DNA of 64,000 bases from Escherichia coli (lineage in GTDB: Bacteria; Pseudomonadota; Gammaproteobacteria; Enterobacterales; Enterobacteriaceae), in NCBI RefSeq assembly GCF_044324875.1, contig NZ_CP172185.1; one strand, 5' to 3'. The notes under the pieces were generated by a model. It was given only the letters and a program-made list of their open reading frames with translations, was not told the DNA's origin and did no database searches. This document shows positions 2,183 through 55,396 of the stretch, piece by piece. The translations under genes and the position numbers were made by a program. Numbering within the stretch: the first letter of the stretch is position 1; each line of letters starts with the position of its first letter.

Positions 2183-3343
2183 TCATGCCTCTTTGACCCA
2201 CAGCTGCGGAAAACGTGCTGGTGCAAAACGCAGGGTTATGATCATCAGCCCAACGACGCACAGCGCATGAAACGCCCAGTCCATCAAGTAATTGCCACTG
2301 ATACTACGCAGCACACCAGAAAACCACGGGGCAAGCCCGGCGATGATAAAACCGATCCCCTGCATAAACGCCACCAGTTTGCCAGCAATAGCGGGTTGCG
2401 CAGAGTGATCGAGCGCCAGCAGCAAACAGAGCGGAAATGCGCCGCCCAGACCTAAACCACACACCATCGACCACAATACCGGCAATTGCAGCGGCAGCCA
2501 GATAAAGCCGCAGAAACCCACCAGTTGTAACGCCAGCGCCAGCATCAAAAGTTTGCGCCGATCCTGATGGCGAGCCATAGCAGGCATCAGCAATGCCCCT
2601 GCTGCTTGCCCAAGCGTCATCAATGCCAGCAAGGAACCGCTGTACTGCGCGCTGGCACCAATCTCAATATAGAAAGCGGGTAACCAGGCAATCAGGCTGG
2701 CGTAACCACCGTTAATCAGACCGAAGTAAACACCCAGCGTCCACGCGCGGGGAGTAAATACCACGCGAACCGGAGTGGTTGTTGTCTTGTGAGAAGAGGC
2801 GACCTCGCGGGCGCTTTGCCACCACCAGGCAAAGAGCGCAACAACGGCAGGCAGCGCCCACCAGGCGAGTGTTTGATACCAGGTTTCGCTATGTTGAACT
2901 AACCAGGGCGTCAGGGCAGCACCAAGGCCACCGCCGCCCATCAGAGCCGCGGACCACAGCCCCATCACCAGTGGCGTGCGCTGCTGAAACCGCCGTTTAA
3001 TCACCGAAGGCATCACCGCCTGAATGATGCCGATCCCCACCCCACCGAGCAGTGCGCTGCTAAGCAGCAGCGCACTTTGGGGGTAAAGCTCACGCATCAA
3101 TGCACCGACGGCAATCAGCAACAAACTGATGGCGACGCTGCGACGTTCGCTGACATGCTGATGAAGCCAGCTTCCGGCCAGCGCCAGCCCGCCCATGGTA
3201 ACCACCGGCAGAGCGGTCAACAGGGCAGCCACGCTAAAGCTCATTCCGCTTGCCTGGCGCAATTGCGGTAGCAGTGGCCCGACGGAGGTGAGCAGTGGTC
3301 GCATATTAAGACCAATCAGCACCAGAACCAGAACCAGCAGCAT
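2183..3343 (-). CDS. cynX: cyanate transporter (MFS); start uncertain, longest ORF starts at 3370
   Basis: 12-TM-like hydrophobic protein recognised as CynX; last gene of cynTSX on minus strand. Confidence 0.85.
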   Translation of the reverse strand: MLLVLVLVLIGLNMRPLLTSVGPLLPQLRQASGMSFSVAALLTALPVVTMGGLALAGSWLHQHVSERRSVAISLLLIAVGALMRELYPQSALLLSSALLGGVGIGIIQAVMPSVIKRRFQQRTPLVMGLWSAALMGGGGLGAALTPWLVQHSETWYQTLAWWALPAVVALFAWWWQSAREVASSHKTTTTPVRVVFTPRAWTLGVYFGLINGGYASLIAWLPAFYIEIGASAQYSGSLLALMTLGQAAGALLMPAMARHQDRRKLLMLALALQLVGFCGFIWLPLQLPVLWSMVCGLGLGGAFPLCLLLALDHSAQPAIAGKLVAFMQGIGFIIAGLAPWFSGVLRSISGNYLMDWAFHALCVVGLMIITLRFAPARFPQLWVKEA

Positions 3344-13870: not shown

Positions 13871-13910
13871 ATTGTCCTCGTCATTGTTATCATTTGTAGG
13901 GTCGAGATTG

Positions 13911-14376
13911 TTGTCGGATGCGACGCTATGCGTCTTATCCGACCTACAGTTCAGTTCACCCCGCAGGCCTGATAAGCCGCGTCAGCGTCGCATCAGGCAT
14001 CGGTTGTCGGATGCGACGCCATGCGTCTTATCCGACCTACAGTTCAGTTCACCCCGTAGGCCTGATAAGTCGCGTCAGCGGCGCATCAGGCATCGGTTGT
14101 CGGATGCGACGCCATACGTCTTATCCGACCTACAGTTCAGCACGCCCCGTAGGCCTGATAAGCCGCGTCAGCGGCGCATCAGGCATCGGTTGTCGGATGC
14201 GACGCTATGCGTCTTATCCGACCTACAGTTCAGTTCACCCCGTAGGCCTGATAAGCCGCGTCAGCGGCGCATCAGGCATCGGTTGTCGGATGCGACGCTA
14301 TGCGTCTTATCCGACCTACAGTTCAGTTCATCCCGTAGGCCTGATAAGCCGCGTCAGCGGCGCATCAGGCATCGGT
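13911..14376. repeat. Tandem BIME array, about 5 copies of a 93-bp unit, in prpB-prpC spacer
   Basis: ttgtcggatgcgacgc(t/c)atgcgtcttatccgacctacagttcag...ggcctgataagccgcgtcagcg(t/g)cgcatcaggcatcgg repeated. Confidence 0.85.
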
Positions 14377-14402
14377 TGTCGAATACAACCAACGGGCGTT
14401 TT

Positions 14403-27679: not shown

Positions 27680-28160
27680 AATTCCCTCCGTAGGTTTGGC
27701 TCAGCGCACAACCATCGGCCATGCCATACAGCATGTCGCAGCCGGAACTGGAGCCAATATGTTTAATTTTTTCTATTGCCTGGGTTGAATTCCCAGGGAC
27801 ACCATAAATAATATCGTGAATAAAATGATGAATATTTTCCCGGCAGCGTTGTTGTAATGCGGCTTCCAGCGTTATGGCACTTAATAACGTGGTATTATTT
27901 CTGCCGCGTTGCAGACCGATATAAAATTCCTCTTTGTATTTTTCCGCCGGATGTCCGGAAATAAATAAAATAAGCGCCAGACCTGTTAAATAATCATCGG
28001 CTGATGGCGTAAGGCCAATCCCTAACCCCATCATACTGGCGACCGCTAAGGCGATATTTTTTTTATCGTTTACTTCCTGAATAACTGCCCGTCGTTTAAT
28101 ATGTAATTCTTTATTTAACGCCTGATAAAACGGATTATCGCCGCGATAATTAAACAGGGT
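27669..28160 (-). pseudogene. yahE: C-terminal 164 codons of DUF2877 protein yahE; 5' part replaced by IS1
   Basis: Own translation shows the frame open from the IS1 junction (28160) down to the stop at 27669, with no start codon upstream of the junction. Confidence 0.75.
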
Positions 28161-28175
28161 GGTAATGACTCCAAC

Positions 28176-28679
28176 TTATTGATAGTGTTTTATGTTCAGA
28201 TAATGCCCGATGACTTTGTCATGCAGCTCCACCGATTTTGAGAACGACAGCGACTTCCGTCCCAGCCGTGCCAGGTGCTGCCTCAGATTCAGGTTATGCC
28301 GCTCAATTCGCTGCGTATATCGCTTGCTGATTACGTGCAGCTTTCCCTTCAGGCGGGATTCATACAGTGGCCAGCCATCCGTCATCCATATCACCACGTC
28401 AAAGGGTGACAGCAGGCTCATAAGACGCCCCAGCGTCGCCATAGTGCGTTCACCGAATACGTGCGCAACAACCGTCTTCCGGAGCCTGTCATACGCGTAA
28501 AACAGCCAGCGCTGGCGCGATTTAGCCCCGACATAGCCCCACTGTTCGTCCATTTCCGCGCAGACGATGACGTCACTGCCCGGCTGTATGCGCGAGGTTA
28601 CCGACTGCGGCCTGAGTTTTTTAAGTGACGTAAAATCGTGTTGAGGCCAACGCCCATAATGCGGGCAGTTGCCCGGCAT
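28176..28679 (-). CDS. insB: IS1 InsB reading frame (expressed as InsAB' by -1 frameshift)
   Basis: Recognised InsB sequence. Confidence 0.9.
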
Positions 28680-28873
28680 CCAACGCCATTCATGGCCATA
28701 TCAATGATTTTCTGGTGCGTACCGGGTTGAGAAGCGGTGTAAGTGAACTGCAGTTGCCATGTTTTACGGCAGTGAGAGCAGAGATAGCGCTGATGTCCGG
28801 CGGTGCTTTTGCCGTTACGCACCACCCCGTCAGTAGCTGAACAGGAGGGACAGCTGATAGAAACAGAAGCCAC
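28598..28873 (-). CDS. insA: IS1 InsA, 91 aa, GTG start
   Basis: Recognised InsA ([42 protein letters not shown]...). Confidence 0.93.
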
Positions 28874-28928
28874 TGGAGCACCTCAAAAACACCATCATAC
28901 ACTAAATCAGTAAGTTGGCAGCATCACC

Positions 28929-52731: not shown

Positions 52732-52833
52732 ATGAAAGAGAATAAAGTACAACAAATCAGTCATAAACTGATTAATATCGTTGTTTTTGTCGCAATTGTA
52801 GAATACGCCTATTTATTTCTCCATTTCTATTAA
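52732..52833 (+). CDS. ykgR: small hydrophobic protein, 33 aa (MKENKVQQISHKLINIVVFVAIVEYAYLFLHFY), ykgR-like
   Basis: Own translation; GAGGAAG RBS 7 bp upstream; below the ORF-track size cutoff. Confidence 0.5.
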   Translation: MKENKVQQISHKLINIVVFVAIVEYAYLFLHFY

Positions 52834-53162
52834 TAACGGCAATAAACTGTTCACTTCAGTGATATTAAAAAATATGCATCCTCTCCCTTTTTTGTAAGTA
52901 ATTATTATATCCGTGGGAGAGGAATACACGCTGTCCGGCAATCAATCAAACTGCGATAAATCATCGGCCAGTAAAATGGAGATAGCCTCCATTCTCGAAA
53001 AATTCATACTCTCAGCGAAACCATCACTCATCAAGGCGTTTATGGGAGCGTCGCCAATGGCTGCTAACAATGCCAGACTTCCCCGTTGCCGAAATTCCAC
53101 ATACCACAAATGGTCACAGGGATTGGGTGTTGAAATGATCCGGATGAGCATGTATCTTTATG

Positions 53163-53180
53163 GTTATGTTATAACATAAC
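53163..53180 (+). promoter_or_regulatory. Zur box: perfect 18-bp palindrome GTTATGTTATAACATAAC upstream of ykgM
   Basis: Palindrome seen in sequence 12 bp upstream of ykgM start; ykgM-ykgO are known Zur-repressed paralogs. Confidence 0.75.
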
Positions 53181-53191
53181 AGGTAAAAATG

Positions 53192-53455
53192 ATGAAGCCC
53201 AATATCCATCCTGAGTATCGTACTGTGGTGTTCCACGACACCAGTGTTGATGAGTACTTTAAAATCGGCTCGACTATCAAAACAGACCGTGAGATTGAGC
53301 TGGATGGCGTAACGTATCCGTACGTGACAATTGATGTCTCTTCTAAATCGCACCCGTTCTATACAGGGAAGCTGAGAACAGTGGCATCAGAAGGAAATGT
53401 TGCACGATTCACCCAACGTTTTGGTCGTTTTGTTAGCACGAAAAAGGGGGCATGA
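53192..53455 (+). CDS. ykgM: zinc-independent ribosomal protein L31 paralog, 87 aa
   Basis: Recognised L31 type B sequence ([18 protein letters not shown]...). Confidence 0.9.
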
Positions 53456-53595
53456 TGAAAGTCCTTAACTCTCTGCGTACCGCAAAAGAACGCCATCCAG
53501 ACTGTCAGATTGTGAAGCGAAAAGGACGGCTATATGTGATTTGTAAATCTAATCCACGTTTTAAGGCCGTTCAGGGTCGTAAGAAAAAACGTTGA
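53455..53595 (+). CDS. ykgO: ribosomal protein L36 paralog, 46 aa ([46 protein letters not shown])
   Basis: Own translation; start overlaps ykgM stop (ATGA); below ORF-track cutoff. Confidence 0.85.
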
Positions 53596-53645
53596 TTCAA
53601 AATTCGACGAATTAACGATATTTGTCTGATTAATAATCAGACCGG

Positions 53646-53684
53646 ATTAATGTTGGTGTATTTATTACACCAGCATTAATTTTC
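53646..53684 (+). terminator. rho-independent terminator after ykgMO (attaatgttggtgta / tacaccagcattaat, then TTT)
   Basis: 15-bp stem with one mismatch, followed by T-run. Confidence 0.6.
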
Positions 53685-54172
53685 CTGAGGATGTATCTTC
53701 CTGTTCATTTAAGGTCAACTGCCTGACGTTTCTCTCCGAATATTCCATTATATTAATGTTGACTTGTTGACCAGGTGCGCCCTGTATGCTGGCATCAACT
53801 CTCTTTTAGACTGAACACGCCACTCAGTTTCCTCCCTTTGCGACGCAGCCTGCATTTACACTCAAACGGTTAAGATGATAAATGTGGTAAATCTGTTGGT
53901 ACTGACATAAAAACGTTTACGCCACAGGAACGGCCTGATCCACCGGTAACCCCATCGCCGACGTTCGAGTGCCAGTTAGAGTAACGCGCACAGATGACTG
54001 AATGCAGTGCCCTGGCAAAGAGGCCATCGTTCCTGTGACAACTGGCAGTCTTCGTTTAACTTCACTTAATTTGGCTCTTAGGGGGCTTACCGGACAGATG
54101 ACGTACTTACACCTGTTTAATTTTTCATCACTTATTGGGATGAACACCCATAACCATGGTAATGACTCCAAC

Positions 54173-54676
54173 TTATTGATAGTGTTTTATGTTCAGATAA
54201 TGCCCGATGACTTTGTCATGCAGCTCCACCGATTTTGAGAACGACAGCGACTTCCGTCCCAGCCGTGCCAGGTGCTGCCTCAGATTCAGGTTATGCCGCT
54301 CAATTCGCTGCGTATATCGCTTGCTGATTACGTGCAGCTTTCCCTTCAGGCGGGATTCATACAGTGGCCAGCCATCCGTCATCCATATCACCACGTCAAA
54401 GGGTGACAGCAGGCTCATAAGACGCCCCAGCGTCGCCATAGTGCGTTCACCGAATACGTGCGCAACAACCGTCTTCCGGAGCCTGTCATACGCGTAAAAC
54501 AGCCAGCGCTGGCGCGATTTAGCCCCGACATAGCCCCACTGTTCGTCCATTTCCGCGCAGACGATGACGTCACTGCCCGGCTGTATGCGCGAGGTTACCG
54601 ACTGCGGCCTGAGTTTTTTAAGTGACGTAAAATCGTGTTGAGGCCAACGCCCATAATGCGGGCAGTTGCCCGGCAT
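54173..54676 (-). CDS. insB: IS1 InsB reading frame
   Basis: Identical to first copy. Confidence 0.9.
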
Positions 54677-54870
54677 CCAACGCCATTCATGGCCATATCA
54701 ATGATTTTCTGGTGCGTACCGGGTTGAGAAGCGGTGTAAGTGAACTGCAGTTGCCATGTTTTACGGCAGTGAGAGCAGAGATAGCGCTGATGTCCGGCGG
54801 TGCTTTTGCCGTTACGCACCACCCCGTCAGTAGCTGAACAGGAGGGACAGCTGATAGAAACAGAAGCCAC
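54595..54870 (-). CDS. insA: IS1 InsA
   Basis: Identical to first copy. Confidence 0.93.
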
Positions 54871-55396
54871 TGGAGCACCTCAAAAACACCATCATACACT
54901 AAATCAGTAAGTTGGCAGCATCACCCATGAACACCCATAACCATTTTGTGCGGCATGTTAATCCATTAAAACACCTTACTGATTGGCAAATCATCTTTAA
55001 TTATGACTCATGATAGTTTTATATTCTATTTATTATCATTTAAACTTGTTTTTTTACTAGTCCATTACACAACACATTAAGACTATTCCTAACACCTCAG
55101 GGCAAAGTTCCTGGCTAATATAAAATGCAAGTAAGAATTGAACGTTATATTGCCAATAACCTTATGAAACTGAATGTCTTTTTCTTCTTATCAAAAAAGC
55201 AATATTTTCATTTTTTGTAAATATTGACTTAACCATGGAATTCCTTTTCTGTTCACATATTGACACTCATCAGGAAAAAAACATAAATTTAAACCTAATC
55301 GAAATAATTAAAACTTAATCTCGTTTAACCTATATTGATATGTGCTACGTATCTTATTTACTTCCGATTTACTAAAGAAACTGAATGTACCTGTAA

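Follow-up and report, generated by a model that had tools for sequence, protein, structure and literature searches.

A perfect 18-bp palindrome upstream of ykgM in a non-K-12 Escherichia coli strain is very likely the known Zur operator of the ykgM-ykgO operon

A 64-kb stretch of DNA from an E. coli strain other than K-12 (hereafter the window) carries a perfect 18-bp palindrome directly in front of ykgM, and we hold with high confidence that this palindrome is the Zur operator of the ykgM-ykgO (ykgMO) operon. The site is already known: it is the characterised ykgMO Zur operator, here in a non-K-12 strain. Because the sequence and the downstream genes are identical, the element in the window is the L31p operator of K-12 in another strain, and Zur binding, the affinity ranking and the Zur- and zinc-dependent repression described below were all shown by others on the identical K-12 sequence. 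Our analysis adds the identity of the element, its uniqueness in the window, its conservation, the geometry of the promoter and where the start codon lies; the precise +1 and the footprint edges are given as predictions.

Results

Sequence, uniqueness and motif fit of the palindrome

Positions 53163-53180 read GTTATGTTATAACATAAC, which is its own reverse complement with arms of 9+9 nucleotides. The original prediction had described a perfect 18-bp palindrome here; the reverse-complement check was positive and the coordinates were exact. The operator and the genes that it precedes are as follows.

53163..53180, no strand assigned: Zur operator core, GTTATGTTA followed by TAACATAAC, a perfect 18-bp palindrome (from sequence, motif fit, K-12 identity and conservation)
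53181..53184, plus strand: Shine-Dalgarno sequence AGGT, 7 nt ahead of the ATG at 53192 (from sequence; a GAGG-like purine block is kept across species)
53192..53455, plus strand: ykgM, type B (zinc-free) 50S ribosomal protein L31, 87 aa (NF002462, RefSeq WP_000803998.1)
53455..53595, plus strand: ykgO, type B (zinc-free) 50S ribosomal protein L36, 46 aa (NF002021, RefSeq)

Even with up to three mismatches allowed, GTTATGTTATAACATAAC has a single match in the 64-kb window, compared with 0.01 expected in shuffled sequence, and no other perfect even palindrome with arms of at least 7 nt occurs there. Palindromy by itself is unremarkable and does not amount to significant evidence: in first-order Markov simulations of the window, 0.355 perfect 18-bp palindromes are expected by chance per 64 kb, and 33% of the simulations contain at least one. 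Because palindromy alone is statistically unstriking, we built the case on the specific sequence, its position and its conservation.

The 18-bp inverted-repeat core bound by Zur was defined as RxxxYRxxR*YxxYRxxxY by Gilston et al. 2014 (PMC4219657). The palindrome agrees with this skeleton (RNNNYRNNR*YNNYRNNNY) at every constrained position. The skeleton is non-discriminating, with 212 matches in the window against about 278 expected, and on these counts it was dropped as evidence for a Zur site. The 20-bp two-dimer pattern TGWNAYRWTATAWYRTNWCA is matched by positions 53162-53181 at 19 of 20 positions, with one mismatch, and only 0.20 matches to it are expected in the window at up to two mismatches. 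The older gamma-proteobacterial 23-bp Zur consensus GAAATGTTATANTATAACATTTC (Panina 2003, as quoted by later papers) fits best in the register 53163-53185, at 16 of the 22 specified positions, and its mirrored register 53158-53180 reaches 15 of 22. Because the centre of the ykgM site is even (9-0-9) and not 11-1-11, the site reads as two overlapping registers of this consensus.

The window holds one other, weak Zur-like match, TGTTACAATACAACATTTTA at 453-476, with two mismatches to the 20-bp Gilston pattern and six to the 23-bp consensus. It sits within the coding ORF of lacY (165-1418), for which reason it is most likely a chance match, and we treated it as such rather than as a second Zur site.

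Genes, start codon and local context

The box lies 11 nt 5' of ykgM, in the promoter of genes for zinc-free ribosomal protein paralogs. The ykgM product matches NF002462 with 122.9 bits (cut-off 86) and the ykgO product matches NF002021 with 91 bits (cut-off 70); ykgO overlaps the stop codon of ykgM. The distance from the palindrome to the ykgM ATG, earlier put at about 12 bp, agrees with our count: 11 nt (AGGTAAAAATG) separate the end of the palindrome from the ATG at 53192. This codon, the start used by RefSeq (position 3093 of our locus L001), is the second of two in-frame ATGs in the ATGATG at 53189-53194, the first of which stands 8 nt past the palindrome. ATG 53189 is found in most E. 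coli; E. albertii and a divergent Escherichia lineage have AAA or ATA there instead, and E. coli GF43 has ATA. Because this upstream ATG is lost in several lineages, we take 53192 to be the conserved ykgM start and rejected 53189.

Upstream, the neighbouring gene is ykgR, which encodes a small membrane protein. The ykgR-ykgM spacer (52834-53188) contains several short ORFs on both strands, none of them supported. Downstream, ykgL (53630-53857, minus strand) is convergent with ykgO. It is annotated as frameshifted in strain 144, which is 100% identical here, and in the window only a 35-aa N-terminal ORF is open. Published work on calprotectin-treated E. coli Nissle places ykgL among the three most induced "genes", a signal that probably comes from ykgMO readthrough and not from expression of ykgL itself.

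Two identical 769-bp copies of IS1 lie in direct orientation at 28160-28928 and 54157-54925, 25,997 bp apart, and bracket the segment with ykgR-ykgM-ykgO-ykgL. The second copy is inserted between ykgL and ecpR, a place where no insertion sequence is annotated in K-12 or strain 144. Recombination between both copies could remove the entire ykgM region. Elsewhere in the window, a 93-bp unit is repeated in tandem 5.1 times at 13910-14381, with 96% matches; the abundance of REP-like palindromic motifs (GATGCGACGC...GCGTCTTATC) in this array gives it the look of a BIME/REP cluster.

Published data on the identical K-12 operator

K-12 MG1655 equals the window across 53125-53200, from the -35 element through the start codon, and the published biochemistry of L31p therefore concerns the same sequence. 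Among the four E. coli Zur operators, L31p was ranked the most palindromic and binds Zur most tightly, with a Kd-app of 0.025e-18 M2; its repression in vivo was 560-fold by RT-PCR (Gilston 2014, PMC4219657). A ykgM-lacZ fusion is silent in the wild type and about 1000-fold derepressed by a zur mutation or by TPEN (Aseev et al. 2020, PMC7297116). Calprotectin causes more than 1000-fold induction in E. coli Nissle according to published biosensor work, and two biosensor papers on engineered probiotics use the ykgM promoter as a zinc or calprotectin sensor. A text search of the literature for the 18-mer gave no match; such sequences are printed in figures only.

These reports support what the original prediction had proposed from sequence alone, a Zur box and the induction of ykgM-ykgO by zinc starvation: the first through the tight Zur binding and repression published for L31p, the second through the derepression with TPEN. 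It had also called for a comparison with published Zur footprints. At the znuABC, L31p and zinT operators the stretch protected by Zur is about 30 bp long (Gilston 2014, PMC4219657), and this protection at L31p applies to an element identical to that of the window.

Distribution and variation in E. coli

Many E. coli chromosomes match the 1.1 kb surrounding the site with 100% identity, and this region occurs in 5086 of 5426 complete genomes. The 76-bp promoter-operator segment is present in 5057 of the 5426 and identical in 2922 records. About 340-370 of the 5426 complete genomes have no match to the ykgM region, and 13-14 further matches to it lie on plasmids, not chromosomes. Variation was sampled in three strains, one per divergence level (O157:H7 F8798, Eco889 and GF43). 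No difference in these three falls within the palindrome or the -35 element; the changes seen are 53160 A to G, 53161 T to C, TATCTT to TATCCT, 53184-53185 TA to CG, and the first ATG to ATA.

Conservation of the operator and its surroundings across species

Scanning one genome per species gave 80 ykgM loci, whose hosts range from Escherichia to Serratia, Photorhabdus, Vibrio and Pseudoalteromonas. All 80 other-species loci have, just 5' of ykgM, a box with no more than four mismatches. In a box-anchored alignment the columns of the core GTTATGTTATAAC are 0.94-1.00 conserved, and the gap between box and ATG is 12-14 nt in 72 of 81 sequences (range 10-26). Two further blocks emerge in the box-anchored columns upstream: TTG at -32 to -30 (T at 0.94), and a TAnnnT hexamer with TA at -9/-8 and T at -4. 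The 17 columns of the promoter spacer are unconserved, each below 0.4 bit, compared with the 0.94-1.00 of the box core. The pattern TTGnnn-(16-18)-TAnnnT ends 2-5 nt 5' of the box in 71 of the 81 sequences, and at any other offset in a 180-nt span it occurs in at most seven.

The layout is thus nearly constant over 80 Enterobacterales and relatives: -35, 17 nt, -10, 3-4 nt, Zur core, 12-14 nt, ATG. This constancy supports a short leader, with transcription starting inside the operator.

Within the box, columns 13-17 of the right arm (53176-53180) are less conserved, at 0.64-0.86 compared with 0.91-1.00 in the left arm (loci L003-L082). Many Enterobacter and Kosakonia have the right arm ACAAAAC or ACAATAC, and the 18-bp symmetry remains perfect in Escherichia, Samsonia and two of four Brenneria loci. 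The left arm may be under tighter constraint because it overlaps the start site and the discriminator.

Promoter geometry and predicted transcription start

The promoter elements and the regions predicted from them are listed here.

53130..53135, plus strand: -35 hexamer TTGAAA of the ykgMO sigma-70 promoter (promoter scan, conservation, Shimada 2014)
53153..53158, plus strand: -10 hexamer TATCTT, preceded by a 17-nt spacer (promoter scan, conservation, Shimada 2014)
53163..53167, plus strand: predicted transcription start zone, 5-9 nt past the -10 (from the conserved promoter geometry)
53157..53186, no strand assigned: expected DNase I footprint of about 30 bp for two Zur dimers (predicted as 30 bp centred on the dyad 53171/53172)

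TTGAAA-17-TATCTT, which agrees with the consensus at 9 of 12 positions, is the sole sigma-70-like match in 52800-53750. One match is no excess over the 2.3 found in shuffles. Because the match count is no higher than in shuffles, the promoter call leans on the cross-species conservation and on Shimada et al. 2014 (PMC3946193), who give TTGAAA-17-TATCTT for ykgMO at an RpoD-holoenzyme genomic SELEX peak in the ykgR-ykgM spacer.

The -10 hexamer ends 4 nt ahead of the Zur box. Because its last base is 53158, the predicted start lies within the left arm: +1 is predicted at 53163-53167, with A 53166 the likeliest position, and the ykgM leader is predicted to be about 27 nt long. Relative to this predicted start the 18-bp core would cover about -3 to +16, and the 30-bp footprint would reach back into the -10. 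Full-text literature searches found no mapped E. coli ykgM transcription start, and the supplements of Mendoza-Vargas 2009 have no ykgM entry. The original prediction had proposed that the leader is very short or that the promoter overlaps the operator. Both are supported in a moderate form, with the start predicted in the left arm of the box and the leader predicted at about 27 nt.

An antisense RNA candidate with its 5' end in the box

A cis-antisense small RNA candidate, ECS017, was described on the minus strand at 53076-53167 by Shinhara et al. 2011 (PMC3175480), with a length of 92 nt by sequencing and a northern band of about 275 nt. Its 5' end (53167) falls within the Zur palindrome, opposite the ykgM promoter. 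Ahead of this end lies a plausible promoter on the minus strand, TTGGGC-18-TATGTT, whose -10 mirrors the left arm of the box. ECS017 has no significant fold (z = +1.68). Because the library was prepared from TAP-treated RNA of M63-grown cells, with no added zinc (Shinhara 2011, PMC3175480), this 5' end may not be a primary start. That the symmetric operator gates transcription both ways, placing a sense mRNA and an antisense RNA under Zur control, seems to us quite unlikely. If the 5' end of ECS017 were a primary start under Zur control, one Zur box would switch on both the sense mRNA and the antisense RNA that overlaps it, and ykgMp could be modulated by the latter.

Alternative readings of the palindrome

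The same Zur operator might instead hold the working promoter inside the box, at an extended -10 TGtTATAAC (53167-53175), with a start at about 53181-53183 and a nearly leaderless mRNA that has about 10 nt before the ATG. TGnTATAAC makes a good extended -10 (5/6 plus TG) and is invariant across species, but that conservation is entirely confounded with the need to bind Zur. Two published observations speak for such an arrangement: Li et al. 2009 (PMC2706843) report the Y. pestis Zur box over the -10 of the mapped ykgM promoter, and the legend to Figure 1 of Gilston 2014 (PMC4219657) mentions an extended -10 within the znuABC operator. In the ykgM site, however, TATAAC lacks an acceptable -35 at 17 nt upstream (AGCATG at 53147-53152 matches 1/6), and the transcript would start at or after the Shine-Dalgarno AGG (53181-53183), with scant room for 30S binding. 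An independent TTG-17-TAnnnT also stands directly upstream in the 71 of 81 sequences noted above, one listed by Shimada 2014. We consider it unlikely that the in-box promoter is the working one; were it used, Zur would compete directly for the -10 element. The in-box element might also act as a second promoter beside the upstream one.

The remaining readings are less likely. One gives the palindrome a role in RNA: transcribed from an upstream start, it would form a leader hairpin that controls translation or mRNA stability, for example in autoregulation by L31B. The full palindrome does fold as a 7-bp hairpin (-6.4 kcal/mol), and the paralogous gene rpmE is subject to autoregulation that acts on its 5' UTR (Aseev et al. 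2020, PMC7297116). But the hairpin is AU-rich with no significant gain in stability over shuffles (z = -1.33), it leaves out the Shine-Dalgarno sequence, and it would not be transcribed in full because the predicted start falls inside the left arm. The predicted leader itself (53166-53215) shows no significant structure (z = -0.01), and across species there is no co-variation between the arms that would keep them paired: in Enterobacter the left arm is unchanged where the right arm is ACAAAAC. A search of Rfam gave no match beyond a chance hit to folP, at 20.8 bits against a gathering score of 99, and bL31 supplied in trans had no effect on ykgM-lacZ (Aseev 2020, PMC7297116). We rejected an RNA-level role on the fold statistics and the Rfam result, and regard it as very unlikely. 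It is more improbable still that another protein, be it Fur, a further member of the Fur family or H-NS, is the main binder and that control by Zur is indirect. Fur-family boxes are all AT-rich inverted repeats, and H-NS was flagged beside the RpoD promoter in the ykgR-ykgM spacer (Shimada 2014, PMC3946193). Against this stand the direct high-affinity binding of Zur at L31p (PMC4219657), the loss of repression in a zur mutant (PMC7297116), the agreement with the structure-derived Zur pattern at 19/20 positions, and the direct binding of Zur to the orthologous Y. pestis site by EMSA and footprinting (PMC2706843). Finally, a functionless chance palindrome in AT-rich intergenic DNA might be considered in view of the third of Markov simulations that contain a perfect 18-bp palindrome. 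This specific sequence is nevertheless expected 0.01 times even at up to three mismatches, its fixed distance to ykgM is kept in 80 species while the flanks diverge, and the box is invariant in the three sampled E. coli variants. Together with the published biochemistry on the identical K-12 sequence, this conservation refutes chance, whose probability we regard as negligible.

Discussion

We conclude that the palindrome is very likely the operator through which Zur controls ykgMO, and the geometry described above suggests how it would work. When zinc is sufficient, two zinc-loaded Zur dimers would cooperate in binding the 18-bp inverted repeat at its overlapping RNNNY elements. Bound Zur would cover about 30 bp, including the last bases of the -10, the predicted start and the first 20 or so nucleotides transcribed. 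By occupying the start site it would exclude sigma-70 RNA polymerase from the strong TTGAAA-17-TATCTT promoter and keep the operon silent, so that repression at ykgM would be ordinary steric occlusion of RNA polymerase. Once zinc runs short, Zur would lose its sensing zinc and leave the DNA, and the promoter would fire. The derepressed mRNA, with its leader of about 27 nt, would encode the zinc-free paralogs of L31 and L36.

The closest known system is ykgMO of K-12 itself (L31p; Panina 2003 as cited by later work, Gilston 2014 PMC4219657), which has the same -35, -10, palindrome, Shine-Dalgarno sequence and start codon. The element is unchanged in the window; the surroundings differ in that the window strain has IS1 about 560 bp 3' of ykgO and lacks the K-12 eaeH/IS3 region upstream. 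The operator of znuA/znuCB, for which a crystal structure of (Zur2)2-DNA is available (Gilston 2014 PMC4219657), equals the ykgM site in its RNNNYRNNRYNNYRNNNY skeleton, in the two-dimer cooperative model and in the roughly 30 bp protected. The znu operator is, however, pseudo-palindromic, binds Zur over 100-fold less tightly and is repressed about 7-fold, whereas the ykgM site is perfectly symmetric; it also serves a divergent promoter pair, and the ykgM site a single operon. In Y. pestis the orthologous operon is ykgM-rpmJ2. According to Li et al. 2009 (PMC2706843), Zur binds there by EMSA and DNase I footprinting, primer extension gave one ykgM start, and the Zur site overlaps the -10 region. 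The nearest relatives in our set, the Serratia loci L081 and L082, have the layout of the window, with -35, 17 nt, -10, 4 nt and box.

Operators of the Fur family share with the ykgM site an AT-rich inverted repeat, a dimeric Fur-family repressor and overlap with the core promoter. The Fur box has the consensus GATAATGATAATCATTATC and the half-site GATAATGAT. The half-sites differ, the ykgM site having GTTATGTTA in place of GATAATGAT. The ykgM site also differs from a Fur box in being reported as Zur-specific and responsive to zinc, not iron.

The ykgM site is the textbook case of the tightest E. coli Zur operator, and its presence in the window carries little weight as a discovery, although the original prediction did recognise the regulatory site correctly from sequence alone. 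The small addition made here is comparative: the layout of promoter, box and ATG is nearly constant among the 80 species.
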